Virus record (IMG/VR): IMGVR_UViG_3300035156_000171
Span: 1-45,573 of that record
From: a virus
Length of the DNA: 45,573 nt
Strand: one strand, 5' to 3'
Under the pieces are notes generated by a model, which was not told where the DNA came from, made no database searches, and was given only the letters and a program-made list of their open reading frames with translations. A program made the translations under genes and the position numbers. The stretch's first letter is position 1. Every line of letters begins with the position of its first letter. Positions 1 to 45,300 of the stretch are shown here, in pieces.

Positions 1-127
1 CGAGCTGGCCGTAAAGCTGACGAAGGACGGACAGAACGTCATCTCCGGCGAGGGCGTCGAGGGGCGGCTCGTCGCCAAGCGTGCGGCCGAACTCGCGGGC
101 TACACGTTCGGGTTGCCGCTGGGGCAG
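1..127. repeat. Terminal direct repeat copy A (identical to 45447..45573)
   Basis: Base-by-base identity of cgagctggccgtaaagctgacg...ggttgccgctggggcag at both window ends. Confidence 0.95.
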
Positions 128-9266: not shown

Positions 9267-9503
9267 CTAGCCGTGCGTCGCTACAGCGTCAAGCGTGCGC
9301 TGCGCGGCGATGGCTTCCCGGATCGTCTGCTCGTGATCCTGCATGAACGCGAGCGTGTTCCTGACGCTCCGCAGCACGGCCATGTGGTATTCGACCTGAC
9401 CTTCCGGCACCTTGGCCTTGCGCAACGTGGCGCGCATGTGGATCGTAACCGTGTCGAGCGTCAACATCTGCATCGACAGGCTGTGCCGCGTCTTAGTTTC
9501 CAT
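9267..9503 (-). CDS. Hypothetical protein (78 aa)
   Basis: ORF in the track. Overlaps the primase stop by 11 nt. Confidence 0.55.
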   Translation of the reverse strand: METKTRHSLSMQMLTLDTVTIHMRATLRKAKVPEGQVEYHMAVLRSVRNTLAFMQDHEQTIREAIAAQRTLDAVATHG

Positions 9504-11973
9504 CGTCCCCTCCCTCGATCACGTAACACGGTATCAGCCGGCCATCGACCCGGCGGCGAACGCGCACATACCCGCGCGACTTGAGGTGCGACGCGATCCG
9601 CCGCTCATGCTGGTCATTCCGCAGGTGCTTCGGGATATCAAGGAAGGTGAACAGCGCGCCCATCGTAAGCGGCATCGTCCCGACCATCGAGTTCAGGTAG
9701 GCGTCAAGGTCTCCGGCCCAAGCGTCCTCGACGTAGCGTGCCGCCTGCACCTCGGACGCGTGGTCGTTTTCTTCGCCCTCAAGCCACCACTTCATGCCGG
9801 CCCGGTAGAGGTGGACCGCCTCGGCCCAAAGCTGGTCGCGATCGGCGGCCAGTCCGTCGATGTCCATTGGGCGCGTCACGCGGACGGGCCAGAAGCGTCG
9901 AGCCCCAGTCGGATCGCGTAGGTATCCCCGGCCACCTGGGTTGACGGTTCCGGCAAGCACGCACCGCCTGGGAATGTTCACGACGATCTTGCCGTATGGG
10001 AGGCGGATGCGGTCAACCTTCGTCGAGACCCACCGCTTGATCCCGTCCGGGTCCGATTTTCCGAAGCCGTTCAGCTCGGCAATTTCGACTATGACTGTAC
10101 CCTGCATCTGCATCACTGCGTCTTTGCTTGATATGTCGTCGATGCTGTCGACGAAATATCTGCGCCCGTTCATGGTCGCCAAGGTTTCAAGCGCAGTAGA
10201 CTTATGCTTTCCTTGCGTTCCCTCGAAGATCAACATCGTATCGACCTTCTCGCCGTCCGGGTTCGTCGACAGGTTCCGAGCCACGGCGGCGAGGAGCCAT
10301 TTTGCACCAAACACGCGCTCGATACCGTTCGCAGTCGGCGTGACGCCCATATACCGCTCAAGCCATGACACTTCGCCCATCACGCGCGAGACGCCGTCCC
10401 ATTTCAGCGCCTCAAGGTAGTCTCGTATCGGGTCGAACGCGGCGCTCTCGGCGACCGTCATGATTGCCGTGCCGGCCTCATTCGTCTTCGGCGTCATGCC
10501 GCACTTTTCTAGGAAGGTTTGGCAGAGCGTGATGTCGTTATCCCGGAGCGTGCGCGGCACCCACGGCGCGGATGACTTTTCCCACGGCGGGCGCTTCGCA
10601 AGCACGACCTCGGCGGTGAAAGTGTTCTTCACGAATACGCCGCGCGTCAGCTCGTGGTGCCGGAGGGTCGCGACGAAATTGTACATGAGCCGTTTGCGCG
10701 GCCCATTGTTCTCGTCGAGCAACCAATACGCCTGAATAGGCGTGCGATCGACGTGATCCTCCTCCGGGTGGGCTGTCGGGAATTTTACGACATTTCCCTT
10801 GCCCGGCGGGCTCTCGGCCGCTGACGGTGCCTTCTTGGCGATTTCCGGCTTTGGCTTCGGTTGCCCGGTCTGGATCAAGGCCGGCGTCGGCTCTGGCGCT
10901 GGCGGCTCGGGGTCGGGCTCGGGTTCGGGTTCGGGGATGCCCGGAGGAGCGTCCCTGAGGTGAGCCCGCGCCCATTTCATCGCCCGCTTGGCGTCCCACC
11001 CCTCAGCCTCGGCGTCGGCCAGGTCCCATCCCTTCGGCATGTCTGCCGGCGGATCAACGATCTTTACCTGCGCCGCGCCGGCCCGCTCGATCATTTCGGC
11101 GAGCCCGAGTTTGTGGTTCGCGCCCTCGCCCCATCCGTCGACCGTTTTTAGACCCTCTTCGTCGGCGTCCCGCCAGATGACGACGCGCCGGCCGGCAAGA
11201 GGCGTCCAATCCGTCTTGCTCGCCGCTTTCCCGCCGCCGCACCACGTCACGGTCGCGAACGACTTGAGCATCCTTTCGCCCGCGTCGGCGCACTTCTCGC
11301 CCTCGACGACTAGCACCTGGGCGTCTGGTCTCAGCGCGAGGCGGTCTAGGCCGTACATGCGACGGGGCTCGCGCATCGGCCGGTGCGTCCATCCTTGCTC
11401 GCCGGTCCTCACGTTGCGGCACCACAGAATGCAAGGTGTGACCTTGGAGCCGTCGATGTCGACCCGGAGCACGTATCCGAACGTCCGGCCGGTGACGAGC
11501 CGGTACGGGTGAACGAGTGTCGGCGTGTAACTCGTAATGGGTTTGTCGGGGCGCTTCGGATTGAATAATGCTGGCGTGCGCTGCCCGGCTTTCAGCGGGG
11601 GCGCGTCGTCAGGCGGCATCGAGGCGACCCAATCCGCATATGGGTCGAACTGCTCGATCGGCGGGCTCGCCGGTTGCCGAAACCCGTCCGGTTTGCGGTC
11701 GCCGTTCAAGATTTCGCACGCGCCCTGAAAGTCGACGCCGTCGAACAGCTCGACGAACTTGACCACATCGCCGTTCTTGCCACAGCCGAAGCAATGGAAC
11801 CGCTGCCCGTCCTCTCGGGCCGGGTAGATCGTGAACGACGGCGTCGTCTCGCTGTGGAGCGGGCAACAGGCGCGCCATTCCGCGCCGTCCCGCTTGATCG
11901 AGATGCCTCTTAGCGGCAGGTAATCCGACAGGTTGTTCGCCTGCCGAATTCCTTGCGTGTCGAATTTTGCCAC
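9493..11973 (-). CDS. Bifunctional primase/helicase: CHC2 zinc finger, Toprim domain, Pro-rich linker and VirE-like P-loop NTPase (826 aa)
   Basis: CCPLHSETTPSFTIY...FHCFGCGKNGDVVKF (DnaG CHC2). VLVVEGEKCADAG and VIWRDADEEG (Toprim E, DxD). PEPEPEPDPEPPAPEP linker. MLIFEGTQGKHKSTALETLA (VirE-type Walker A). Confidence 0.9.
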   Translation of the reverse strand: MAKFDTQGIRQANNLSDYLPLRGISIKRDGAEWRACCPLHSETTPSFTIYPAREDGQRFHCFGCGKNGDVVKFVELFDGVDFQGACEILNGDRKPDGFRQPASPPIEQFDPYADWVASMPPDDAPPLKAGQRTPALFNPKRPDKPITSYTPTLVHPYRLVTGRTFGYVLRVDIDGSKVTPCILWCRNVRTGEQGWTHRPMREPRRMYGLDRLALRPDAQVLVVEGEKCADAGERMLKSFATVTWCGGGKAASKTDWTPLAGRRVVIWRDADEEGLKTVDGWGEGANHKLGLAEMIERAGAAQVKIVDPPADMPKGWDLADAEAEGWDAKRAMKWARAHLRDAPPGIPEPEPEPDPEPPAPEPTPALIQTGQPKPKPEIAKKAPSAAESPPGKGNVVKFPTAHPEEDHVDRTPIQAYWLLDENNGPRKRLMYNFVATLRHHELTRGVFVKNTFTAEVVLAKRPPWEKSSAPWVPRTLRDNDITLCQTFLEKCGMTPKTNEAGTAIMTVAESAAFDPIRDYLEALKWDGVSRVMGEVSWLERYMGVTPTANGIERVFGAKWLLAAVARNLSTNPDGEKVDTMLIFEGTQGKHKSTALETLATMNGRRYFVDSIDDISSKDAVMQMQGTVIVEIAELNGFGKSDPDGIKRWVSTKVDRIRLPYGKIVVNIPRRCVLAGTVNPGGRGYLRDPTGARRFWPVRVTRPMDIDGLAADRDQLWAEAVHLYRAGMKWWLEGEENDHASEVQAARYVEDAWAGDLDAYLNSMVGTMPLTMGALFTFLDIPKHLRNDQHERRIASHLKSRGYVRVRRRVDGRLIPCYVIEGGDDGN

Positions 11974-12010: not shown

Positions 12011-12127
12011 TTAGGCCGGCAAGGCGACCCATGCGAAAGCGGCAGCGAGCCACATGATCGAGATGCCGATGATGTCGAGGATCATCGCGCGTCGGTAGGC
12101 GCGGTCGGTATGTTCGTTCGTTGTCAT
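12011..12127 (-). CDS. Small membrane protein (38 aa)
   Basis: GGGGGA Shine-Dalgarno before ATG 12127. MTTNEHTDRAYRRAMILDIIGISIMWLAAAFAWVALPA. Lies 44 bp downstream of palindrome copy 4. Confidence 0.4.
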   Translation of the reverse strand: MTTNEHTDRAYRRAMILDIIGISIMWLAAAFAWVALPA

Positions 12128-12170
12128 GGCAAGCGTCCCCCTGGTTGCCGATTGATCGTGATCGCAATAA

Positions 12171-12187
12171 GTTGACAGAGTGTCAAC
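12171..12187 (-). promoter_or_regulatory. Palindrome copy 4, GTTGACAGAGTGTCAAC: putative promoter/operator
   Basis: Perfect 7-N3-7 palindrome. It contains the TGA stop of the 12183..12452 gene. An A/T-containing hexamer (GATCAC) lies 17 nt after the minus-strand TTGACA. Confidence 0.55.
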
Positions 12188-12452
12188 CGGACTGGGGATT
12201 ACCCCCGGCTTCAATGATTTTCGGGGCAACAGGCCGACAGAGAATGCAGGCCTTCAGCCCGGAGCCGCACGCGAGGTGGACGTTGCCGTTTGTTCTGAGA
12301 TTGCCGCGGCACTCGATCGCGTAGCCGTTGCGCCCGCCAACCTCGACGTTCGCTATATACGGGGCTTGGCCGACGAGCCGGTTGATGAGCCAGAAACGGG
12401 CGGCCTCGCCACGGCTCTCTATTAGGGCGATTATTTGTTTACCGATCAGCAT
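12183..12452 (-). CDS. Hypothetical protein (89 aa)
   Basis: GC3-rich codons. Overlaps the upstream gene by 14 nt. Confidence 0.5.
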   Translation of the reverse strand: MLIGKQIIALIESRGEAARFWLINRLVGQAPYIANVEVGGRNGYAIECRGNLRTNGNVHLACGSGLKACILCRPVAPKIIEAGGNPQSG

Positions 12453-12678
12453 TACTTGTCCCTTGTTTATGCGATAGGGAGGAATTACCGGCGTCTGTAA
12501 TGCGGACGATGCCTTTGAGGGGCGCTACTTCGGCCCATCCTCTAGCGACTAGCGAAGAAACGAACAAATCATCATCGTCGTCGAGTAATTTAAGATGCGC
12601 CAACTCGACCTGATGGACCCACTGCCCGCTGCGGGCGAGGTGCGTCAGGAGGCGCGTCTGCTCTGGCGTTGGCTTCAC
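12439..12678 (-). CDS. Hypothetical protein (79 aa), possibly winged-helix
   Basis: AAGGAGG Shine-Dalgarno 6 nt before GTG 12678, which overlaps the upstream TGA (GTGA). Contains an acidic DDDDD run. Confidence 0.5.
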   Translation of the reverse strand: MKPTPEQTRLLTHLARSGQWVHQVELAHLKLLDDDDDLFVSSLVARGWAEVAPLKGIVRITDAGNSSLSHKQGTSNADR

Positions 12679-12965
12679 GGCGTTCCTCCTTCGGAACGTG
12701 GTGTGAGGGCGTCCAGGTCGGCGGCAACGCCAGGGCACGCGCACGCGCCGGGGATCGGGCAACCGGGCGGCTCAATCTGTCCGGGCGCGCGCTCAATCGT
12801 GGCGCGAAGGGCGGTGATCTCGCGTGCTTGTCGCCCAATCTCGGCCTCAAGCTCGGCGAGGAGGCGTTCGGCAGCTTCGGCGCGGGTGCGCCACGCCAAT
12901 CCGATGCGCTTGATCTCTCGTAGGTCCCATTCCTGGGGGCTGAGGAACTCGTCATCGTCCGGCAT
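12675..12965 (-). CDS. Coiled-coil protein with a Cys-rich tail (96 aa)
   Basis: ATG 12965 overlaps the upstream TAA (TAATG). AEAAERLLAELEAEIGRQAREITALRATIE, then CPIPGACACPG. Confidence 0.55.
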   Translation of the reverse strand: MPDDDEFLSPQEWDLREIKRIGLAWRTRAEAAERLLAELEAEIGRQAREITALRATIERAPGQIEPPGCPIPGACACPGVAADLDALTPRSEGGTP

Positions 12966-13198
12966 TACGTCGGCTCCCCGTTGTCGAAAGTGCCCGCCAC
13001 GCCGAACGGCATGTTGAGGCCCCATTTCCTGGCAAACCGCCGTGCGCCCTGTGCGTCTGTCAGTCGGCTGTAGTTCGTGGGATACCGAAGCCGGCTCCCG
13101 GAGTAATAGCGGTCGACCATCCAAGTCAGGCGGTAGTCACCCGCGCCCAAGCGCTGGATGCGGTGGCCGTAGCTGCCGGCCGAGCTGTGCCGGCTCAT
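12965..13198 (-). CDS. Hypothetical protein (77 aa)
   Basis: ORF in the track. Start/stop-coupled on both sides. Confidence 0.55.
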   Translation of the reverse strand: MSRHSSAGSYGHRIQRLGAGDYRLTWMVDRYYSGSRLRYPTNYSRLTDAQGARRFARKWGLNMPFGVAGTFDNGEPT

Positions 13199-13521
13199 CG
13201 CGACTGCCCTCCGAACGGCATGCCGCCGTGGGGCTCGGGCGACGGGTCGGTGGGTGTTGGTACTGGGGCCGCCTTCGCCTCACGCTTGCGGATTTCCTCG
13301 CCCGCGCGGTAGCAGGCCCACGCGATCATCTTCCGAGACGCGGCGTCCCACCGATCGCGACCCGCGCCGTCGAAACCTTGCCAGAAGAAGTTGGCGACGG
13401 CGTTCCCTGTGTGGCGTCCGCCGTCAGCGCGGATCAGGTCGCGGTGCTTCGTGTCGTAGCAGTGGATGCAGGCGTCGAACTGCCGACGCATCACGGCGTC
13501 CTTGAACGGGTTGCAGATCAT
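13195..13521 (-). CDS. Hypothetical protein (108 aa)
   Basis: Internal ATG 13521 overlaps the upstream TGA (ATGA). MICNPFKDAVMRRQFDACIHCYDTKHRD... Confidence 0.55.
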   Translation of the reverse strand: MICNPFKDAVMRRQFDACIHCYDTKHRDLIRADGGRHTGNAVANFFWQGFDGAGRDRWDAASRKMIAWACYRAGEEIRKREAKAAPVPTPTDPSPEPHGGMPFGGQSR

Positions 13522-14723
13522 GACTGCGCCTCCCGGCCCGCGCCCGCTGGCGGGGTGACGCGCGCGGAGAGGAGGGAGAGGACGGCGCGAGCCTTCGAGA
13601 CCGACAGAGTGATGAAGCCTTCCGCGCTGCCCCATCCTCGTGCGGACGGGTTCGTCAGGCCACTGCGGATTTCCTCTGCGATCTCCTCCCGCATCGTGTC
13701 CGCGCCCGCTGTAAGGCCGCCTTCGGTGGGTGGGGTGCGGAGAGCGGCGAGCGATAGGATGCAGTAGCCCTCCTGCAAGCCGAACTCGCCGGGGCGCAGG
13801 ATGTTTGTGATGCGTCGATCAACCGGCGGGTCGTCGCTGTAGCCGGTCTCGGGCGCGTAGCACCGCAGCCGGATCGTCTGCCCAACCTCGTAGCCGCTCC
13901 GGTCGTCCTTGCGGAACTCGAATGTCTTCAGGCCATCGCGGCACTGATAGAAGACGCTCGGGTGCGCCTTAAACTCGTGGGCGATCTTCTGCTCCTTGGC
14001 CGCCGTCTCGTGAGCAGCGCTCCTCACGACAGGGAACTCGGCAAACGGCCCGATGCGGTCGTTGCGGGGCGGGAGGGGTGGCGCCTCGGGTTGAGAGGGA
14101 TGAAGGATGTACCGGACAAGGGCGAACGTGGACTTGAAGCATCGGCCGTGGCCGCTGTCGTCGAGCATGCCGTTGAGGCGTGCCCAGTCCTTGTCGTCGA
14201 AGGCTTCGAACAGGCTCCGCAGCTTGTCCGAGCACGGGGCCGGCGTCTCGGGCTGGGTGCGGACGAGAGCGTGGCTGATCTCGCGAACGGCAGTGAAGTG
14301 CTCGGGCCTCAACCACTTTAGAACTTCGACATAGCCCTCCCCCGCGCCGCGCTGATCCAGTTCGTCAGCAACCGCAACGAACGGCTTCAGCGCACCTGAC
14401 AGTACTTGCAGGCGCCCTGCCAAGCCGTCTACCTCTTCCGATCCGGGAACCAGCCTCGGCCCTGCTGCCAGATCGTGCCCGTGATTTTGTAGTTCCAAGC
14501 CCACTTCAGGGCCGCCCATATCCGGCGCATTGGCTTTCGTCCTTTCGTGTGCGGGTGAGATGGAGGCGATAACATCCTCGATCTTCGTCAGCGTCTGCTT
14601 GCCCAAGCTGTCGGGCGGGCCTTCCCCGTATTGATCCTCAACGGCGAGTAAGCATTCGCGGGCGGCCTTCAACGCCTCGATTGCGGAGCTGCGATGTTCT
14701 TCTAGGATTTCCTGTGCCATCAC
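13518..14723 (-). CDS. Two-part protein (401 aa): unknown N-terminal region plus a DUF3850/ASCH (PUA-like) domain
   Basis: HEFKAHPSVFYQCRDGLKTFEFRKDDRSGYEVGQTIRLRCY...QEGYCILSL fits the DUF3850 pattern HELK..P..F..G.K.FE.R.NDR.Y.VGD.L.L. Confidence 0.65.
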   Translation of the reverse strand: MMAQEILEEHRSSAIEALKAARECLLAVEDQYGEGPPDSLGKQTLTKIEDVIASISPAHERTKANAPDMGGPEVGLELQNHGHDLAAGPRLVPGSEEVDGLAGRLQVLSGALKPFVAVADELDQRGAGEGYVEVLKWLRPEHFTAVREISHALVRTQPETPAPCSDKLRSLFEAFDDKDWARLNGMLDDSGHGRCFKSTFALVRYILHPSQPEAPPLPPRNDRIGPFAEFPVVRSAAHETAAKEQKIAHEFKAHPSVFYQCRDGLKTFEFRKDDRSGYEVGQTIRLRCYAPETGYSDDPPVDRRITNILRPGEFGLQEGYCILSLAALRTPPTEGGLTAGADTMREEIAEEIRSGLTNPSARGWGSAEGFITLSVSKARAVLSLLSARVTPPAGAGREAQS

Positions 14724-14735
14724 TATTACTCGCTT

Positions 14736-15647
14736 CTATTCTTCGTTTTCGGCAAGAAACGACACAACGTCGTCCCATCGATCCGAGCATGTGATTAGCA
14801 TTTCCTTGTTTTTGGCTTCTTCGGCCATGTCCTTTTCCCATTGATCCTCGTCGATCAACTCGCGAACCGCGTTCTTTATCAAATCGTCGAGCATCCTAGG
14901 ATCGAGCGCGTCAAGCTCCCAACTCTCGTCGCCGTGCTCGGCCGCATATCCGGCGTGCCGGCTGTCGGTTTCCTTCGCCGGGTTGGGCGGCGGGCTGTGC
15001 TCCTCGATCTGCGCCATATTCAGCGCCAGCCGCTCGACCTCGACGCCGAACCGCGAGAACATCTCTAGTCGATCCCGGTTGTCGCGCGTCATGTCCACGC
15101 CGGACGGATCATGGTCGCCGAGGTGAAACACGACGACACGTTTTCGCTGGCCCTTGCCTATCGCGCCCAGCCTCTTGCCGGCCGCCCACTGTTCGCTCTG
15201 GCTGACGTAGCCACGACAGGAGAAGAACGGCACGCGCAACGGCTGACACGCCCGTTCGATCACGCCGGCAAGGGCCTCCTTCTCGACCCATACCTCGCAG
15301 TAGGCTTCCTGATTTCGCCATGGGTTTTCCATGTACTGATCCGCGACAGCGCTGATGATCGCTTCGGGTGAACTCCAGACGTTGGGCGATGTCAGGTTCC
15401 GGGTCCGGTCTACGATCGCGGACCAGTCGATCAGCCCGGCCATGCGGCCGTCGTTCACGATCTGCCCAAGGCGCTTGTATTCGGACTGCTTGTTCTCAAT
15501 CAACGCGCGACTAACGAACTGATAATACAATTGCCGCAACGTTAGCTCGTAACCCTGTCTTTGGTATTCGAGAATAATCGAATTCGCCTGCGCGATTACC
15601 TCCAAGCTCGATCGCCGAAAATTCTTTAATTCGAACTGCTCTTTCAT
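14736..15647 (-). CDS. Spo11 / topoisomerase-VI-A-like Mini-A protein (5Y-CAP plus Toprim, 303 aa)
   Basis: LTLRQLYYQFVSR (Tyr41/42 at 15522..15527), EVWVEKEAL (Toprim Glu122), FHLGDHDPSGVDM (DxD, Asp178/180). ATGA-coupled to DUF4031. Confidence 0.8.
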   Translation of the reverse strand: MKEQFELKNFRRSSLEVIAQANSIILEYQRQGYELTLRQLYYQFVSRALIENKQSEYKRLGQIVNDGRMAGLIDWSAIVDRTRNLTSPNVWSSPEAIISAVADQYMENPWRNQEAYCEVWVEKEALAGVIERACQPLRVPFFSCRGYVSQSEQWAAGKRLGAIGKGQRKRVVVFHLGDHDPSGVDMTRDNRDRLEMFSRFGVEVERLALNMAQIEEHSPPPNPAKETDSRHAGYAAEHGDESWELDALDPRMLDDLIKNAVRELIDEDQWEKDMAEEAKNKEMLITCSDRWDDVVSFLAENEE

Positions 15648-16015
15648 TTCGCGTCCCCTTGTTTCGTTCGCTTCAGCGTCTCATGATTTACCCGGCCATC
15701 GTTCCGCATCCCGAATTTTTCACGCACGCGGCGAATTCTGTCGACGACCTCCTGCCGGCCTGCGATCCTCGCCGCGTGCTCGGCTGGGGCGTATTTGTCC
15801 ATCAACACAGCGCCCATCGCGATCGCCCGCGCGCGGTATCCCTTCGAGATGTCGTAGTGCTCCCACGAAGCCTTGGGCGGGCACTGGAACCAACGCCGCA
15901 GCCTGGGATCGAGCCGGCCCGCGAACTCGTGCAACTCCTCAACGCTGTCGGCCCAGAGGTGGCACATCTTCATCCGGCCAAACCGATGTTCGACGTTGTC
16001 GACGTACACGGTCAT
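15644..16015 (-). CDS. DUF4031 family protein (123 aa)
   Basis: MTVYVDNVEHRFGRMKMCHLWADSVEELHEFAGRL...WEHYDIS matches the DUF4031 pattern, including the HYD motif. Confidence 0.7.
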   Translation of the reverse strand: MTVYVDNVEHRFGRMKMCHLWADSVEELHEFAGRLDPRLRRWFQCPPKASWEHYDISKGYRARAIAMGAVLMDKYAPAEHAARIAGRQEVVDRIRRVREKFGMRNDGRVNHETLKRTKQGDAK

Positions 16016-16515
16016 ATCACCACATCTTCCTCAACGTCCCGCGGCACGCAGACCGTGATGAACCGGCGCTTCCGGCGCAATCCCGTCACGGCGTCGATCT
16101 TGGATCGGCTCACGAATTCCTCGCCCGATCTCAGCCCGAAAACCGTCCCCATGTCGACAAGACGTTCAGCCGCCTCGTAGACGGACGGGTGGTCGTCCGT
16201 GACCTTCACGATCCCCGAGGGGCTCGCCGCGCATCGCTCGACGATACGGTTCATGGCCGCCTGAACCATTCCCCGGTGCGAAGCCATGATCCTATCGAGT
16301 TCAGGACCCTCCGCATTCGAAGCGAGCTTGATCCTGCCGACCGATACGCCGCGGATTTTCTCGTAGGCGAACTTCGCCCGCGCCCTGGTGCTGTCGGTGA
16401 CGTGCGATGACGGGTGCAACAGCTTCTTGAGGGTCCGCAGAGCGACGCTCGTATCAGCTTGGCTGTACGGAGGGGGGTGTTTGTCGATAAGTTTCTCGAT
16501 GGCCTTTAAATCCAT
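16012..16515 (-). CDS. Hypothetical protein (167 aa), first gene of the leftward early operon
   Basis: AAGAGG Shine-Dalgarno before ATG 16515. ATGA-coupled to DUF4031. The 5' end is lower in GC. Confidence 0.65.
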   Translation of the reverse strand: MDLKAIEKLIDKHPPPYSQADTSVALRTLKKLLHPSSHVTDSTRARAKFAYEKIRGVSVGRIKLASNAEGPELDRIMASHRGMVQAAMNRIVERCAASPSGIVKVTDDHPSVYEAAERLVDMGTVFGLRSGEEFVSRSKIDAVTGLRRKRRFITVCVPRDVEEDVVI

Positions 16516-16825
16516 AATCTTTTCAACCTCTTACCCCTGATCTTAAGAGACATAGATAGAAAGTGAGATTAAATATTAGAGGGGAAAGGTACAACCTTTT
16601 GAAATTTATCGCAATAGGTTTACCAAACGGGCTCTATCTGCCATAGCTTGTACGTAACAGCATGGAACTGCGGGAGGTGAACCTATGGGGCCAAATATCA
16701 ACTTTGTTTTCGGGTCCGACATGAACACGCGACGCGTACTTAAACCCATATAAACACACGCAAACGAGTGTGTACGTGCGATTTTTTTGTGCGAAAACGC
16801 ACACGTTCATATTTGAGGGAAATCC
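16516..16825. promoter_or_regulatory. AT-rich divergent control region between the leftward and rightward operons
   Basis: About 310 bp, clearly less GC-rich than the rest of the genome. Contains sigma70-like hexamers, a short ORF with a strong Shine-Dalgarno (16685..16753), two short inverted repeats and a T7 run (16782..16788). Confidence 0.6.
16566..16594 (-). promoter_or_regulatory. Candidate early-left promoter (TTGTAC-17 nt-TAATCT)
   Basis: On the minus strand, -35 is at 16594..16589 and -10 at 16571..16566, about 45 nt upstream of ATG 16515. Confidence 0.3.
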
Positions 16826-17011
16826 ATGAAGGGCGAAGAAAAAGTTTTGCACGTCGTTCCAACGTTGCACCCCGACAACACTCGGTCAGTCGAGGGGGTA
16901 TCATGGCCCCGAAAGCGGCTTACGGAGCGGTCCCCGGAGGCTGTAAAACGGATCGCGGAATTGATGCGGCAATCCAGGGTTCGGCGGGATTTCGGAGGGG
17001 TCGAGGAATGA
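16826..17011 (+). CDS. Hypothetical protein (61 aa), first rightward ORF
   Basis: GAGGGA before ATG 16826. Stop overlaps the next ATG (ATGA). Confidence 0.4.
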   Translation: MKGEEKVLHVVPTLHPDNTRSVEGVSWPRKRLTERSPEAVKRIAELMRQSRVRRDFGGVEE

Positions 17012-17238: not shown

Positions 17239-17414
17239 GCGGGGCGGCGTGGATCGCCGTTCTCCTGTTCTTCGTCAACATTGGCTCTGGCGTGCTGTGC
17301 GTGGTCGATGGTCGTATCTGGCGAGCGTGGGCCAGCTTCATTGCCGCTTGGCTGCTGGCGATTTCTCTGGCGTTTCGTCTAGTCGCCTGGATGGGAGGGT
17401 TCGATGCGGTTTGA
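17235..17414 (+). CDS. Small 2-TM membrane protein (59 aa)
   Basis: ATGA overlap. AAWIAVLLFFVNIGSGVLCVV and ASFIAAWLLAISLAFRLVAW. Confidence 0.5.
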   Translation: MSGAAWIAVLLFFVNIGSGVLCVVDGRIWRAWASFIAAWLLAISLAFRLVAWMGGFDAV

Positions 17415-17568
17415 ATATCGGATAGCGAGGGCTCGGGCCTGTGAGCCAATCGACATTGAGGAAGCTGGCTTGAAAATCCGTCAACACGGCATGGACGGCT
17501 GGCGCGTGACCTGTTGCGTTGCGACTGAGGGGTGGGTTCTGTGGACACTTGAGAGGGAGGTGAAATGA
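17404..17568 (+). CDS. Small protein (54 aa), paralog A of a tandem pair (DUF4177-like GW..V...WTLEREVK)
   Basis: Not in the ORF track. MRFEYRIARARACEPIDIEEAGLKIRQHGMDGWRVTCCVATEGWVLWTLEREVK*. Confidence 0.5.
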   Translation: MRFEYRIARARACEPIDIEEAGLKIRQHGMDGWRVTCCVATEGWVLWTLEREVK

Positions 17569-17741
17569 TGGTGTTCGATTATTGCGCTGTGCGCGCTCGT
17601 CTCGACTGGCCGGGAAGTTTCGAGGACGGCGTCGAGACGGTGAAGGCTCTCGCCAAGGAGGGGTGGCGCGTCGCGCATTGCGTCGGCGTTCTGAGCCAAG
17701 TCGTTTGGACGCTTGAGCGGGAGGTGAAGCGCGATGGATGA
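17565..17741 (+). CDS. Small protein (58 aa), paralog B of the tandem pair
   Basis: Not in the ORF track. GGGAGGTGA Shine-Dalgarno. MMVFDYCAVRARLDWPGSFEDGVETVKALAKEGWRVAHCVGVLSQVVWTLEREVKRDG*. Confidence 0.5.
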   Translation: MMVFDYCAVRARLDWPGSFEDGVETVKALAKEGWRVAHCVGVLSQVVWTLEREVKRDG

Positions 17742-39357: not shown

Positions 39358-42300
39358 ATGGCCGGATTGTTCGACGCTGCCGTTGAGGATGTCGCGGCAA
39401 GCGAGGACATGACGGCCCGCGCGGCGACGCCGGGTTCGACGCTGGCACCTCCCGCGCCGGCCTCCTCCGGCTCGCCGCTGGGCTCGACCGGGTTCGAAGA
39501 ATTGCCGGACCCGGCGAACGCGCCGGCCGCGACGCCTGCCCGCTCGATGTTCTCGGCCGCGGTCGATGACGTGGCGAACGACGACAACGCCCGTCTGTCC
39601 GGGGCGCTGGAGATGGCGCGCGCGTCCGACCCGGCGAAGTATGCGGAGGCGCGGGCAATTGCCGATCGCGACGCCCTGCCGATGGAATTCGTGACGGCTA
39701 ACCTCGATGATCTGAAATCGAGGCAGACGGCGAACGACATGCGCCGCGTTCTCGAAGACACGCCCGCGCTCAAGCAATGGTTCCTGACCGGCGACAACGC
39801 AAACGTCGTGAAGCGCGACGACTTGCACAAGCTTTCGGGCCTCGATCACCTGCTCGCGTCGAGCGCGGCCGGCTGGTCTGAGGGCTGGGATCAGCGGCAG
39901 TCGGCGGACATCCGATACCGCCAGATTTTCGGACGCGCATCGGCGGCCGAGATTGCCAGGGCGGACGCGGCGGACAAGCAAGAGGCGCGAGACTTCGGCG
40001 CGGAAGGGTTCTTCCAGGGCGCACCGGCCGCATTCTCCAAGATGCTGCCCGGCTTGCTGGGGTCGACCTCTGCCGGCCTCGCGCGCGCGTCTCAGACGGC
40101 ACCGGCCGGCGCGGCGCTCGGGGCGCTCGGCGCTGGCCCGGCGGGGGCGGCGGCGGGGTTCGCGACAGGCGCGGCGGTGGGCGTCACGGCCGGACGCCTG
40201 GAGGATAATTTTCGGCAGGAAGCCGGCGGGGCCTACTCCGAATTCCTGCGGATAAAGACGGACGACGGCGCGGGCCTCGACCCGGACATCGCCAAGGCGG
40301 CAGCGCTGATCGCGGGCATGGCGTCGGCCGGTCTGGAAACGATCGGCGAGGCGGCGATCGAGCGGATGGTTCCGGGCCTCGACAAGATCGGCGTGGCCTC
40401 GCTGCTCAAGGGCGGATCGCGCGAGGCGCTGAAAGAGGCGATCAAGCAACCATCGATTCGCGCAGCGCTCAAGGCGTTCGGCGGCGGGATCGCCGGAGCG
40501 ATGGGAACCGAGATTGGCACAGAAGTAGCTCAGGAGGGCGTCACGCTCCTTGCCGGGCTTGTGGCGCAGCGAGTGGACGGAGGCGAGTTTCAGGCCGTGG
40601 AAGGCCGAGAGGTGCGCGAGCGTCTAGTCGCTACGGCGACCGAGACGGCGCAGGCGATGCTGATCCTCGCGCCCGCGCTCGGGTCGACCCGGCTCGGTCG
40701 CGACCTTGCCGTTGCCAAGCGGTCGGTCGACATGCGCGAGATGTATCAGCAAGCGCACGACATGGCTGGAGAGACCGAGCTGCGAAAGGTTGCGCCGGAA
40801 CGCTACCTCGACGCGGTCAAGTCGTTCCTGGGCCAGGGCAAGGCAGCGGACACGGTCTACGTGCCGGCCGGCAAGATGACAGAGCTGTTCCAAGAGATGG
40901 GCCTGTCGCCGTCCGACCTCGACGCTCGGATCGACGGGTTCTCCGGTCGGTATGCGGAGGCGGTTGCGACCGGTTCGGATGTGCATATCGACATGGCCGC
41001 ATATCAGACGCACATCGCCGGCACGCCGCTCGGCGAGGCGCTGATCGAGCATCAACGGTGGCACCCGGAGCTTGAGACGGTCGACGAAGCGCGGCGGGCA
41101 TTCGAGGCCGCGCGCGAGCAAACGGACGCCATGCTTGAGGACGCCGTGAACGCGGCGCGCGAGGACGCGGCGAAGGCGGCTCCTCGCCAGCAAGTCGAAA
41201 CGAAGGTCTATGAACTGCTCGTCAACATCGGCGAAAGCCCGGAGGCCGCGCGGACCCAGGCGGCGTTGTACGGCGCGACGTTCGGGACGCTCGGCGAGCG
41301 GGCCGGCGTGTCTCCGCTGGAGCTGTTCGAGGCGCAAGGTCTCGACGTGCGTCGCGCTATGCCGGATGGCCTGGATTATCGCAAGGTCGATGAACTCGAA
41401 ATCGCCATCGACGCGGTGCGCAAGGGCGATGGAGAGCGGGCGCGCAGGGCCCGTGCAAGAGGCCAGGGACAAAGCCTCGCGTCGTTCCTGGCTTCGCGCG
41501 GCGGGCTCGTCGAGACGGATAGCTTCAAGGGCGAGCTGTCTTCGCGTGATTTGCCGAAGGGGCTGATCGGCAAGCCGGACAAGGGGCTCGACCTCGACAG
41601 CGCCGCGTTGGCCGCGCTTGAGGCCGGGTACTTCCCGGACGCTGTGACGGAAGACGGCGGGTTCGATCGAACAGGGTCCGTCGAGGCGTTGCTTGCTGCG
41701 ATCGACGACGAAGTTGCGGGACGCCCGCGTTACACGATCGAGGCGGAAGCGGTGAACATCGATCCGTCGCTTGCGCGGATCGAGGCGCTTGCGGATGAAA
41801 TGGCGATCCTCGGCCTAGACCCGGCGTCGATGACGAACGACGAAATTCGCGCTGAACTCATGAGATCGTCGAGCCCGGACGCTCTGAATGGAGCGCTGTT
41901 TCAGACGGCGGGCCGTCCCGACCTTGCCGGCGACCGTGGCGACAAGCGCGGCTCGATCCAGTTCGGCGACGGCTCGACCATCATCAACCTGTTCCGTGCC
42001 GCGAACCTGTCGACGTTCCTGCACGAAAGCGGCCACCTGTTTTACGAGGTGATGCAGCAAGTCGGCGGGCGCGAGGGTGCGCCGGATCAGCTCGCGACCG
42101 ACCTCGCGACGCTGCACGCCTTCACGGGTGCGGAGGTGGGCAAGCCCATCTCACGCGAGGCGCATGAGAAGTTCGCCAAGGCGTTCGAAACCTACCTCTC
42201 TGAGGGCCGCGCCCCATCCCCTGACCTTGCCGGCGTTTTCGAGCGGTTCAAGTCCTGGCTGATGTTCGTCTACCGCGGCGCGGCCCGCGCGATCGGCCTG

Positions 42301-45300
42301 CCTGCGATCCCGGCTGAAATCCGCGACGTGTTCGATCGCATGCTCGCGACGGACGAGGAAATCGCGGACATCGCGAAAGACCCGTCGTTCCGGCCTGTGT
42401 TCAAGGATGCTGCTGCGGCCGGCATGACTGAGCTGCAATGGTCTCGGTATCAGGCGTCGGCGCAGAACGCGACTGACGCGGCCAAAGGCGAACTCCTGGC
42501 GAAGCTCGTCGGCGAGAAAAAGCGCGAGCAAACGCGCGAGTGGAAGGCGGCCAAGGAAGCCACGCGCGAGGAAGTGTTCGCCGACCTCGCGACGCGGCCG
42601 GTCTATCAGGTCCAGCACTACATCCGCACGGGCGAAATACTGAACGGCGACGGCGTCGTGCCGATCGACTTGGCTGTGCGCCGGCTCGACCGCCAGTGGC
42701 TCGTGAACCGTTTCGGCGCGGGCGTCCTCTCGCGCCTGCCGCGACAAGTTCCGCCGGTCTACACGGACAAGGGCGGCCTCGACCCGGACGAAGTCGCCGA
42801 GTGGTTCGGGTTCACGTCCGGCGAGCACATGGTCGGCGAGATGCTGTCCGCGCCGTCGTTCGCCCGCGCCTTGAACGCTCGGGTCGACGAGCTGATGCGC
42901 GAGCGCAACGGCGACCTGATGTCGAACCAAGCCGCGATGACGGAAGCGGCGACCCAGGCGTTCAACAACGACGAGCGGGGCGTCTTCCTCGAAACCGAGC
43001 TGAAGGCGCTCGCGTCCAAGGCCAAGGGTTCGCCCGGAAACCCAATGCCGAGGCAACAGGCACGCGCCACGGCCCGCGAGCTGATCCGGGGTAAGGTTGC
43101 CGCCGAAGCCGGCCGCGTGGCCGTGTACGCCCGCGCTAGGGACAAGGCGGCGCGCGAGGCAGAGCGGGCCGTCCTGACGGGGGACTTCGCGGCGGCCACG
43201 GATGCCAAGCGCCGCCAGTTGTTCCACCATTTCATGACGCAAGAGGCGACCGCCGCGCGCGACGAGGCAGAGGCGACGCGCCGCTACCTCGACAAATTCG
43301 CCAGCCGGAAGCGTCCGCCGGGCGTCGACCCGGAATACCTCGACCAAATCGAAGGGTTGCTGGAGCGGTTCGAATTCAAGCGGTCGACAAGCCTCACGGC
43401 GATCAACCGGCGCAAGTCCCTGTCGGCGTTCGTGCGCGAGCGTGAGGACGCAGGCGACGCCTTCGCGATCCCGGAAGACCTTCTGACGGACGCCCGTTTG
43501 GTCTCGTACAAGGACATGACCATGCTCGATCTCGCGGCGCTCCGCGACGTGGTCAAAAATCTCGAACACCTGGGCCGCCTCAAGGGACAGCTCCTCAACA
43601 AGGGGCGGCGCATCTCCTTCGAAAAGGCGCGCGACGAACTCGTACTACAGGCGCGACGGACGCCGAAGAAAAAGGGGATCAAGGGGCGCAACCCCACGGA
43701 CTGGGAGCGCATGAAAGGCACGGTCGCCGGCCTCGATGCATGGTTGCTCAAGATGCAGACCGTGTTCGATTGGTTGGACCTGGGCGATGTTAACGGCCCG
43801 TTCCAGCGCTTGATCTGGCAGAAGTTCGTCGACGCTCAGAACAAAAAGGGCGAGTTGCAAAAGGAATTCGCGGACAAAATCCAGGCGATCATGACCGGGA
43901 TGCCAAAGGGGTATCTTGCCGAGAAGAAGTCTGTGCCGGCCCGGCCCGAGTTGATGTTCACGCGCTCCGAGCTGTTCGCGATCGCGCTGAACCAAGGCAC
44001 GGAAAGCAACCGGAACAAGCTTCTCAAGGGCGAGACCGTGTCGCGCCTGGAGGGGCGTTCGTTCAACAACGAAGTCGAGATGAATTCTGCGCTGTCACTC
44101 CTGTCGAAGGAAGATTGGGACCGCGTGCAATCCTTGTGGGATTTACTGGAGGGCATGTGGCCGGAGACGGCGGCGCTGGAGAAGCGCATCTCCGGCGTCG
44201 AGCCGCCGCGCCTGGAGCGCCGCGAAGTCATCACGGCGTTCGGCACCTATCGCGGCGGGTATTACCCGATGGTCTACGATCCGCTGGTGTCGGGCGACGT
44301 GGCTCGGCGTGCGGAGGAGGAGGCGGACAAAAAGTTCGACAATGTCTATTCCCGCCCGGCCGTCGCGCACGGTTTCACGAAAGCCCGCGTCGAGGGTTAC
44401 AGCCGGCCGGTGCTGCTCGACCTTCGCGCGCTCACGTCCCACATCGACGGCGTGATTCACAACCTCACGCACCGCGAGGCCGTGCGTGACACGCTCAAGC
44501 TCATAGCGGACCCGACGCTCGAACTCGCTCTGACGGAGACGATGGGGCGCGAGGTGTACGGCGAGATGAACAAGTGGCTCGACCGGATCGCGAAGGATCG
44601 CGGCGACCCGCCGGCCGATACTGTGGCGGCAAATATCCTCCGGCAAGCGAAGACGAATATCAGCGTCTACGCGATGGGGTTCCGGCTCACGACGGCGCTA
44701 TCGCAGTTCGCCGGGTTCGCGAACTCCGTCGAGGTGGTCAAGCCGTCATTCCTGGGCGCGGCGATGATCCATTCGACCCGGCATCCGCGCGAGGCGTGGG
44801 CGCTCGTCCAATCGAAGTCGGGCCAGATGCGCGACCGTGTCAACAATATGGACCGAGACATCCGTGCCGCACTTCGCGCTCTGGAGGGCAAGGACGGCAT
44901 GCTCGACGGGGCGAAGCGTTACGCCTTCATCCTCGTCGCGATGGCCGACAGGGTGGTGACGGTGCCGACTTGGCTCGGGGCCTACAACCAGCACATGGCG
45001 ACGTATCCGGGCGACGAAGCCGGCGGCGTGCGCGCGGGCGATCGGGCCGTCGACCTGTCGCAAGGATCTGGCGCGACCAAAGACCTGTCCTCGATCATGG
45101 GTAATCAGGGCGGCGCGTTTCAGTTCATGACGTTGTTCTATTCGTATTTCAACACGTACTACAATCGGCTGCGGTCTCTCGGCAGAGATACGCGGACGAT
45201 GTTCGCGGACGGAGAATACGAAGACTTGCCGCATCTCCTTGCGCGCTCGGTCGCGCTCGTGATCCTGCCGGCCCTCATGGCGGATTTGCTCGTGGGCAAG

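Follow-up and report, generated by a model that had tools for sequence, protein, structure and literature searches.

We propose that the four tightly packed genes at the head of the leftward accessory/replication cluster of a metagenomic phage form a mosaic, and we favour, on balance, a reading in which they are four independently acquired accessory genes, one of them a stand-alone DNA-cleaving Mini-A protein that would serve as a replication aid. As judged from its sequence, this 303-aa protein is a true member of the already known Mini-A family, a sizeable branch, carried by viruses and without an ATPase partner, of the type IIB topoisomerase A-subunit/Spo11 lineage. An earlier sequence-only reading had proposed that DUF4031, Mini-A and an ASCH fusion, together with the first gene, make up one DNA-manipulation or takeover module. 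The absence of conserved synteny has largely disproved this proposal.

Genome and locus

The window (the whole stretch of DNA analysed, 45,573 nucleotides) represents a podovirus-like phage recovered from a metagenome. Its genome is complete, assembled as a 45.4-kb circle, and includes genes for terminase, portal and capsid; the host is probably an alphaproteobacterium. Identical gene order was found in a second assembly, Logan SRR10954965, and hence the locus is not a chimera. The features of the locus are collected in Table 1. As the sequence-only reading had described, the first three genes are tightly packed and coupled by two ATGA overlaps, one between the DUF4031 start and the g167 stop, the other between the Mini-A start and the DUF4031 stop, and 12 nt separate Mini-A from g401. 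All four ORFs have a GC3 of 0.74–0.79, matching the coding frames of this genome. The AT-rich region reported beside these genes was likewise confirmed; it separates the leftward cluster from a rightward one (small ORFs, HNH, terminase) and is presumed to be a divergent control region, its promoter function being inferred only. The ATG of g167 is preceded by a good RBS (AAGAGG), and no sigma-70-like consensus promoter was found upstream of it. Besides the primase-helicase, the same phage encodes a YqaJ exonuclease, a VRR-NUC nuclease and a ResIII helicase (gene calls, Pfam/PHROG), and also a probable annealing protein.

Table 1. Positions of the genes, motifs and flanking features of the Mini-A locus in the window
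Feature	Position (nt)	Strand	Description
Four-gene group	13518-16515	minus	g167, DUF4031, Mini-A and g401, tightly packed
Intergenic region	16516..16900		AT-rich; 44% GC vs 63.6% in the whole window
g167	16012..16515	minus	167 aa; first gene of leftward cluster
DUF4031 protein	15644..16015	minus	123 aa; PF13223 and phrog_4887
Mini-A	14736..15647	minus	303 aa; truncated tyrosine-bearing winged-helix domain (5Y-CAP) and Toprim
Y41-Y42 codons (TATTAT)	15522..15527	minus	In RQLYYQF, aa 38-44; Y42, predicted catalytic tyrosine
E122 codon	15282..15284	minus	In WVEKEAL, aa 120-126; predicted Toprim general acid/base and metal ligand
D178-H-D180 codons	15108..15116	minus	In GDHDPSG, aa 177-183; predicted Toprim DxD metal-binding motif
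P219-PPNPAKETDS-R230 codons	14958..14993	minus	Nearly invariant, Mini-A-specific
W243-E-L-D-A-L248 codons	14904..14921	minus	Mini-A version of type IIB C-terminal box T2BI
g401	13518..14723	minus	401 aa (independent gene call: 400 aa)
DUF3850/ASCH-like domain of g401	13752-13979	minus	aa 249-324; PUA fold; PF12961, phrog_986
Six small ORFs	12011-13521	minus	Downstream context, without known function (gene calls, Pfam, PHROG)
Primase-helicase	9493-11973	minus	DnaG zinc-ribbon and VapE-like domains (gene calls, Pfam, PHROG)

The Mini-A protein

Mini-A matched phrog_6247 'DNA topoisomerase' with E = 2.8e-111. Comparison by tblastn with gp49 of Pseudomonas phage NP1, the published Mini-A exemplar (PMC7671362), gave 45.2% identity at 96% coverage (E = 7e-73). 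The nearest homologues of the window protein are only about 64% identical to it, and the family is large, with 11,819 representatives at E <= 0.001. In order to assess residue conservation, we counted over 363 sequences, 150 of which represent clusters at 50% identity. The motifs RQLYYQF, WVEKEAL and GDHDPSG, which had been taken as hallmarks of a Spo11/Top6A cleavage subunit, are all present, and R38, Y42, E122, K123, D178, D180 and G183 were found to be nearly invariant: R38, E122, D178, D180 and G183 are each conserved at 100% and Y42 at 99%, and at position 41, 90% of the sequences have Y and 7% have F. Further towards the C-terminus, the WELDAL box, preceded by S242, is conserved at 97–99%; Takahashi et al. 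named the C-terminal box T2BI and described xWELDAL as a Mini-A signature (PMC7671362). The motif from P219 to R230 reached 91–99% in the Mini-A sequences, and no conserved equivalent of it is seen when Top6A is aligned. Two Mini-A homologues bear an intein three residues ahead of the Toprim Glu. Such a site is typical of motifs that are essential for catalysis.

Function of Mini-A

Mini-A is probably an active, stand-alone Tyr/Toprim DNA-cleaving accessory enzyme. It would act alone, as a homodimer, with Toprim Glu122 and Asp178/Asp180 holding Mg2+, and Tyr42 would attack a phosphodiester of the DNA, becoming joined to it through a 5'-phosphotyrosyl link; both strands (or a single one) might thereby be broken, reversibly or permanently. 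Its role may be auxiliary in phage DNA replication and recombination, where it could make ends to be processed by the phage's YqaJ-type exonuclease, VRR-NUC nuclease and probable annealing protein, or alternatively ease or undo topological links in DNA undergoing replication. No biochemical activity has been shown for any member of the family (PMC7671362), and our literature search found no later report of one.

In an alternative reading, Mini-A is a stand-alone effector against the host or its defences and no helper of replication or recombination; its target might be the host chromosome, which it would nick or break, or a defence element, which it would cut, or it might divert Toprim-based defence nucleases as a decoy. 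We compared seven sister phages (terminase 73–78% identical), and none carried Mini-A in the syntenic slot, although the flanking terminase and primase genes were kept. Mini-A is therefore dispensable for this lineage, which is as compatible with an accessory replication aid as with an effector directed against the host or its defences. Its absence from all seven, set beside its occurrence in widely differing viruses, an archaeal sphaerolipovirus among them, gives a patchy, accessory-like phyletic pattern that would suit an effector, as would the position at the cluster head beside the control region and the finding that related Toprim dimers serve as nucleases in Wadjet and Gabija systems (PMC13040014). 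However, temperate phages and prophages often carry Mini-A, as in Listeria LWP01, where it adjoins an excisionase, and on contigs from the bacterial genomes of Brucella, Mesorhizobium and Phyllobacterium, and in such elements indiscriminate cleavage of host DNA would be costly. Moreover, its neighbours of known function elsewhere belong overwhelmingly to replication, recombination and repair (RecT, Erf, Sak4, RecE/PDDEXK exonucleases, a Holliday-junction resolvase, ligase, polymerases, primases, helicases, repair glycosylases), and the protein has no PADLOC match. We thus regard an effector role as unlikely, though one to be kept in view.

Mini-A could also be a self-sufficient Spo11-like double-strand-break maker that is used on the phage's own DNA and feeds exonuclease/annealing recombination, a more specific idea that we hold to be doubtful. 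If it were true, the breaks would prime recombination-dependent replication or concatemer formation, and Mini-A would be a viral analogue, possibly the ancestor, of meiotic double-strand-break initiation. The present phage, in which Mini-A occurs together with YqaJ, the probable annealing protein and VRR-NUC, would then be a minimal test case.

That Mini-A does not cleave at all, and has kept ancestral motifs as a DNA-binding, topology-sensing or scaffold protein, appears very improbable. Such a role would agree with the silence of the literature on Mini-A activity, with the missing B subunit, which drives Top6A, and with the proposal that in structures of apo Topo VI the T2BI box lies over the catalytic tyrosine (PMC7671362). 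Nevertheless, a dead enzyme would not be expected to keep its catalytic residues at 99–100% conservation across thousands of diverged clusters, the Toprim Glu motif is a target of inteins, and SPO11 can cleave DNA by itself: purified mouse SPO11 dimers do so without a partner (PMC11922746). These points argue for the DNA-cleaving accessory enzyme.

The neighbouring genes

The first gene, g167, had no Pfam, PHROG, NCBIfam or PADLOC match. Its product is 24–28% identical to the C-terminal halves of proteins of L234, L237 and L231. In the sister phages the first gene encodes 324–346 aa, and g167 resembles its C-terminal half alone; the N-terminal half has the appearance of a DNA-binding domain of the helix-turn-helix (HTH) type, and no remnant of this half was detected upstream of g167. 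The gene is thus a shortened relative of one for a probable regulator.

The second gene indeed encodes a DUF4031 protein, as had been assigned before (PF13223, E = 2.8e-19, 69.6 bits against a gathering cut-off of 25.6 bits; phrog_4887, E = 2.3e-19). We found 153 homologues, and among the 120 listed almost all are stand-alone proteins of about 100–140 aa. Conserved residues are C18, H19, Q44, P46-W51, H53 and D55. The AF2 model (pLDDT 92) had no relative among solved structures (best Foldseek E = 0.33).

The product of g401 had been described as having an ASCH/DUF3850 domain as its C-terminal half. The domain is present (PF12961, E = 9.1e-14, 51.9 bits against a 22.9-bit gathering cut-off; phrog_986, E = 2.3e-19), but it lies internally, between an orphan N-terminal region of about 240 aa and a 75-aa tail. 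Homologues exist for the DUF3850 segment only, namely nine proteins of 271–675 aa, three of them named from Methylobacterium genomes. RNA or modified nucleotides are the more likely targets of this DUF3850/ASCH-like protein. According to our reading, it would have a job separate from those of DUF4031 and g167, all three being merely physical neighbours of Mini-A.

We then surveyed 103 other Mini-A loci with 134 flanking ORFs. Essentially no synteny was conserved. DUF4031 occurred within 5 kb in only two loci, on near-identical contigs, where it lies 4 kb from Mini-A and never adjoins it, and neither DUF3850 nor g167 was found in any of the 103. No Pfam or PHROG family recurred in more than two of the flanking ORFs, and the largest cluster of neighbours comprised six loci. 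The sister phages carry DUF4031, DUF3850 or g167-like genes in other combinations, never with Mini-A, and homologues of DUF4031 and DUF3850 occur in unrelated contexts; those of DUF4031 have an integrase and a ParB-like gene as neighbours, or lie on the downstream side of a gene for a VapE-like primase. As there is no shared synteny in related phages, the four genes are a chance neighbourhood and no new DNA-takeover module. Joint action of the four as one co-evolving host-takeover module therefore deserves hardly any credence, despite the single strand, the position at the head of the cluster, the g167-like and DUF4031 genes that also adjoin in one sister phage (L234), the ASCH gene that Parabacteroides phage PDS1 carries 3 kb from its own Mini-A, and the tight packing with two ATGA overlaps, 4-nt overlaps being the norm in phage operons.

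Comparison with known systems

Phage and prophage DUF3850/ASCH proteins share with g401 the segment of aa 249-324, which matches PF12961, and g401 also matches PDB 3IUW (E = 0.017). The domain is embedded mid-protein in g401, whereas it is N-terminal in a 675-aa sister-phage protein. DUF3850 is enriched among phage fusion proteins (PMC12704722), and other ASCH proteins have been examined as candidate tRNA N4-acetylcytidine erasers (bioRxiv 10.64898/2026.02.27.708502).

JetD/MksG, the Toprim-based dimeric DNA-cleaving nuclease of Wadjet/MksBEFG, is related to Top6A (PMC13040014), and being a Toprim-based Top6A relative is what it has in common with Mini-A. The analogy between the two that had been suggested for this locus gained no support: a PADLOC search returned 0 families at E <= 1, and the genome has no SMC-like gene. 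Mini-A is phage-encoded, lies outside a host defence island, and lacks JetABC/SMC partners.

Top6A and Spo11 have the same domain order as Mini-A, 5Y-CAP followed by Toprim, with T-x-R-x-L-Y-Y, VEK[DE]A and DxDPxG in colinear positions. When Mini-A was aligned by hhalign with Pfam-verified archaeal Top6A, the whole protein gave P = 0.0033, the N-terminal half alone P = 0.014 and the C-terminal half alone P = 0.0019, as against 0.09–0.64 for controls; the hhalign probability of the match was only 8–14%. This profile alignment bears out the kinship with Top6A that the motifs had suggested: R38/Y41/Y42 align with R103/Y106/Y107, E122 with E209, and D178/D180/G183 with D261/D263/G266. The window protein had no match to Pfam TP6A_N (PF04406) or TOP6A-Spo11_Toprim (PF21180) at E <= 1, and TP6A_N appeared in 6 of 60 Mini-A homologues at merely E = 0.1, in contrast to 1e-18 and 1e-58 for genuine Top6A sequences with the two models. 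An HMM search of PDB sequences with Mini-A found nothing, and Foldseek matched the AF2 model (pLDDT 90) to Toprim domains of RecR, topoisomerase IV and DnaG-type proteins (E >= 0.01), without Top6A or Spo11 in the top 50. The hhalign match begins at Top6A residue 68–88, so that the first 70–90 residues of Top6A, which bind Top6B, have no counterpart, and Mini-A has in addition a long helical tail at the C-terminus and the PPPNPAKxTDSR motif. A GHKL/transducer B subunit is missing as well, as had been noted before: no called gene in the whole 45.4-kb circle has a GHKL/HATPase Pfam match.

The closest known system is Mini-A itself (Takahashi et al., NAR Genom Bioinform 2020, PMC7671362). The window protein agrees with it in its size of about 300 aa, in the missing N-terminal stretch of 5Y-CAP that binds Top6B, in being virus-encoded without a B subunit, and in the RxxYY, Toprim E, DxDxxG and WELDAL elements. 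Compared with the subfamily, it showed no essential differences, and the window copy resides in a podovirus-like metagenomic phage.

Results

The first and last 127 nt of the window (1-127 and 45447-45573) are exactly identical, and hence the window is a circular assembly of a complete phage genome, 45,446 bp long once the repeat is counted only once. The ENA metagenome contig k141_1224668 matches it, and the gene order is identical in a second assembly (Logan run SRR10954965). Megablast of positions 1-25,000 against deposited phages gave no match, and Rfam and tRNA scans found no Rfam family and no tRNA. Two gene clusters diverge near 17 kb (see table). The T7-like structural module of the rightward cluster comprises portal, capsid, nozzle, a gp14-like protein, an SLT protein and a 2,107-aa protein, whose ORF spans the circle junction and carries an LPD22 'polyvalent protein' domain. 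Past the primase-helicase of the leftward cluster lie genes for a VRR-NUC nuclease, a ResIII helicase and a YqaJ exonuclease, the first two on the opposite strand, and the phage also encodes a probable annealing protein. Two tandem paralogous small genes in the rightward cluster both end in WTLEREVK; the pair originated by duplication with a 164-nt period, and the second copy has a weak DUF4177 match (E = 0.008).

Positions of the main features of the phage genome
Feature	Position	Strand	Remarks
Rightward cluster	from ~17.0 kb	+	small ORFs, HNH endonuclease, small and large terminase, T7-like structural module
Leftward cluster	from 16,515	-	the four genes below, six small ORFs, DnaG-zinc-ribbon/VapE primase-helicase
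g167	16012-16515	-	gene call
DUF4031 gene	15644-16015	-	gene call
Mini-A	14736-15647	-	gene call; 303 aa
g401	13518-14723	-	gene call
First WTLEREVK gene	17404-17568	+	54 aa
Second WTLEREVK gene	17565-17741	+	58 aa
2,107-aa ORF	39358-45573, continuing to 235		LPD22 domain

An independent gene call concurred with the four genes that the sequence-only reading had placed at the head of the leftward cluster. The ATGA overlaps it had described for the first three were found at the g167/DUF4031 and DUF4031/Mini-A junctions, and Mini-A and g401 are spaced by 12 nt. Its protein identifications were also right, as judged by profile matches and Mini-A signatures. All four genes have a GC3 of 0.74-0.79, and GC content falls to 44% in 16516-16900, compared with 63.6% overall. 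No sigma-70 site turned up ahead of g167 in a simple scan, so that the status of a first or early operon is a prediction from the layout.

The 303-aa protein matched phrog_6247 ('DNA topoisomerase') from end to end (E = 2.8e-111), and tblastn matched 78 phage records. Among these, gp49 of Pseudomonas phage NP1, one of the two Mini-A sequences displayed in the defining paper (PMC7671362), showed 45% identity over 96% coverage (E = 7e-73). The signatures given in that paper were all found, namely R38xxY41Y42, E122, D178xD180xxG183 and W243ELDAL248, of which the WELDAL box is described there as Mini-A-specific. Across 363 aligned members, 150 of which represent 50%-identity clusters, R38, E122, K123, D178, D180 and G183 were 100% conserved. 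Y42 was conserved in 99%, while position 41 was either Y or F, and Y42 is therefore the predicted catalytic tyrosine. A further motif, PPPNPAK(E)TDSR (aa 219-230, window 14958-14993), is 91-99% conserved across the family; it has no conserved counterpart in Top6A and is absent from the motifs listed in the available text of PMC7671362. The family is very large, with about 11,800 clusters at 50% identity (11,819 representatives at E <= 0.001; 2,722 at E <= 1e-30). The Mini-A family is one already described, to which the window protein adds another member in an ordinary mosaic context.

Longer homologues were screened for fusions; apart from inteins, the screen gave one fusion, to DUF1643, and C-terminal extensions that carry no annotation. 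In P0349 (712 aa) and P0379 (677 aa), a Hint/LAGLIDADG intein lies between ...RVE and CWVEKDA, three residues ahead of the Toprim catalytic Glu (E122 in the window). In P0365 (457 aa) a DUF1643 domain is fused N-terminally to Mini-A, and several homologues of 433-471 aa have a C-terminal extension of some 150 aa that matches nothing in Pfam. P0001 (415 aa), the top-scoring database entry, was rejected as a fusion: about 110 of its residues are repeated exactly within it, probably through an assembly artefact.

Direct tests of the relationship to Top6A/Spo11 were weak. Pfam gave neither a TP6A_N nor a Toprim match on the window protein, TP6A_N appeared in six of 60 homologues with E = 0.1 at best, and PDB sequence searches with the single sequence and with an HMM profile returned nothing. 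Foldseek of the AF2 model (pLDDT 90) against PDB and BFVD gave generic Toprim/Rossmann-like matches (RecR, topoisomerase IV, DnaG-type Toprim; E >= 0.01 for PDB), with a single BFVD match at E <= 0.001, a 152-aa protein. Top6A/Spo11 was not among the best 50 matches, and that a model of such confidence nevertheless missed it is a warning against relying on Foldseek alone with this fold.

Because of this weakness an independent Top6A profile was built. Top6A proteins were recovered by scanning GTDB genomes with the degenerate motif [LIV][VI]VEK[DE]A[AVTI]F, followed by a Pfam check. The scan gave a cluster of 66 ORFs, mostly on archaeal contigs and mostly of 360-475 aa, two representatives of which matched TP6A_N (1e-18 and 2e-22) and TOP6A-Spo11_Toprim (2e-58 and 4e-63). 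In hhalign, Mini-A and this profile gave a single colinear alignment, at P = 0.0046 when 21 sequences were used and P = 0.0033 when 215 were, as against P = 0.09 for an unrelated family from the same VEK scan and P = 0.64 for reversed Top6A. The Tyr, Glu and DxD hallmarks that had been read from the sequence were aligned in this comparison: LTLRQLYY with PTIRDLYY (T36/R38/Y41/Y42 on T101/R103/Y106/Y107 of Top6A), VWVEKEAL with VVEKDAV (E122 on E209), and GDHDPSG with SDSDPYG (D178/D180/G183 on D261/D263/G266). When aligned separately, both halves were placed correctly, the N-terminal one with P = 0.014 (controls: P = 0.13 for the VEK-scan family, P = 0.24 for reversed Top6A) and the C-terminal one with P = 0.0019. 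The probability reported by hhalign itself was only 8-14%, and the relationship is thus remote. Taken together, these comparisons support a distant kinship of Mini-A with Top6A/Spo11, in line with the literature. The stated lack of a Top6B partner was confirmed, with zero GHKL/HATPase Pfam matches among the called genes of the circle. Kinship with JetD of Wadjet was rejected, as PADLOC matched neither JetD nor any other defence profile on the four proteins.

In order to survey gene neighbourhoods, 103 further Mini-A loci from deposited phages and IMG/VR were inspected over 4-5 kb on each side, using single-sequence phmmer and family HMMs. DUF4031 occurred in two, the very similar L007 and L008, about 4.3 kb downstream of Mini-A; DUF3850, the N-terminal region of g401 and g167 occurred in none of the 103. 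BLAST clustering of 788 neighbouring ORFs gave a biggest cluster of six loci, relaxed phmmer clustering of ORFs one or two genes away a biggest cluster of four, and no Pfam or PHROG family occurred more than twice among the 134 immediately flanking ORFs. Mini-A therefore has no conserved partner gene. A 'Mini-B' was also sought among the flanking ORFs, and neither clustering gave one.

Where a neighbour could be given a name, it belongs to recombination, replication or repair. Such neighbours include RecT, Erf, Sak4, RecE/PDDEXK exonucleases and a Holliday-junction resolvase, as well as polymerases, primases, helicases, HNH endonucleases and a UV glycosylase. The order in NP1 is ligase, small ORF, Mini-A and Sak4, with a Cas4-type exonuclease farther downstream. 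Mini-A is followed by endonuclease V and DNA polymerase in RcSimone-Hastad and by a ThyX-like gene in BP12C, and it follows an excisionase in LWP01. In PDS1 the order is polymerase, split Mini-A, NinB and NinG, and an ASCH gene lies 3 kb off; its Mini-A (L316, 3914-4800) is annotated as adjacent 'DNA topoisomerase' and 'DNA primase' genes, which reflects either a real split or a wrong gene call. A Mini-A is also present in the archaeal sphaerolipovirus HCIV-1.

Seven contigs with a large terminase 73-78% identical to that of the window served as sister phages. All span the slot upstream of the small-terminase gene, and the primase-helicase is 45-58% identical in those whose sequence extends that far. 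None of the seven has Mini-A in this slot. DUF4031 is present in two, beside a g167-like gene in L234 and on the other strand near an HNH gene in L238, and DUF3850 in one (L231/L236). Given these differing gene sets, the head of the leftward operon is a place where accessory genes are swapped. The module of DUF4031, Mini-A and ASCH proposed by the sequence-only reading was not borne out as a conserved unit, either in the survey or in the sisters.

Among the matches listed, DUF4031 homologues are nearly always stand-alone proteins, some 100-140 aa long. Of two such loci examined, one has an integrase beside it and a ParB-like gene upstream, and the other lies downstream of a VapE-like primase gene. 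The model of the window's DUF4031 protein (pLDDT 92) found no solved structural relative in Foldseek (best E = 0.33), and the conserved pairs Cys18-His19 and His53-x-Asp55 may mark a metal or catalytic site. The protein g401 contains a PUA-like DUF3850 domain (aa 238-331), its sole part with homologues (nine proteins, three named from Methylobacterium genomes). In the sister the domain is N-terminal (aa 10-103 of a 675-aa protein, L231:7001-9028), and the two proteins are unrelated apart from it; the domain has been shuffled between lineages. The PUA-like superfamily is usually linked with RNA or modified nucleotides. DUF3850 is enriched among phage fusion proteins (PMC12704722), and ASCH proteins have been examined as candidate ac4C erasers (bioRxiv 10.64898/2026.02.27.708502). 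This background gives no particular reason for a link between g401 and Mini-A. Finally, g167 corresponds to the C-terminal half of a 324-346-aa first gene in three sisters (L231:5102-6142, L234:1956-2933, L237:5303-6277), and no trace of its helix-turn-helix-like N-terminal half is left at g167. By these comparisons, DUF4031 and g401 behave independently of Mini-A.

Discussion

We infer that Mini-A is an active enzyme with Top6A/Spo11 chemistry. The near-absolute conservation of the Tyr/Arg and Glu/DxD residues argues for activity, as do the inteins just before the Toprim Glu in two homologues and the cleavage of DNA by SPO11 dimers without partners (PMC11922746). Mini-A would act as a homodimer with one Tyr42 attacking each strand, aided by Mg2+ at the partner protomer's Toprim domain. 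As it has no ATPase gate, it would work as a nuclease or by breaking and rejoining DNA, and not as a strand-passage topoisomerase.

As to its role, we favour an auxiliary function in phage recombination and replication, which is suggested by the neighbours of Mini-A elsewhere and by YqaJ, the probable annealing protein and VRR-NUC in this phage. The main rival is an anti-host or anti-defence factor, with which the patchy, dispensable distribution of Mini-A would agree.

In summary, the locus at 13518-16515 adds little past one more Mini-A member, and its main value is negative: without a conserved partner, attention belongs to Mini-A alone or with host factors, and not to a complex with DUF4031 or ASCH. 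What is of interest is the function of Mini-A proteins at large, a matter of the family and not of this locus. Among phage protein families that bear a clear catalytic signature but have no demonstrated activity, Mini-A ranks with the largest, and its function bears on the origin of type IIB topoisomerases and Spo11, and on whether a lone A subunit is a working DNA-breaking enzyme.
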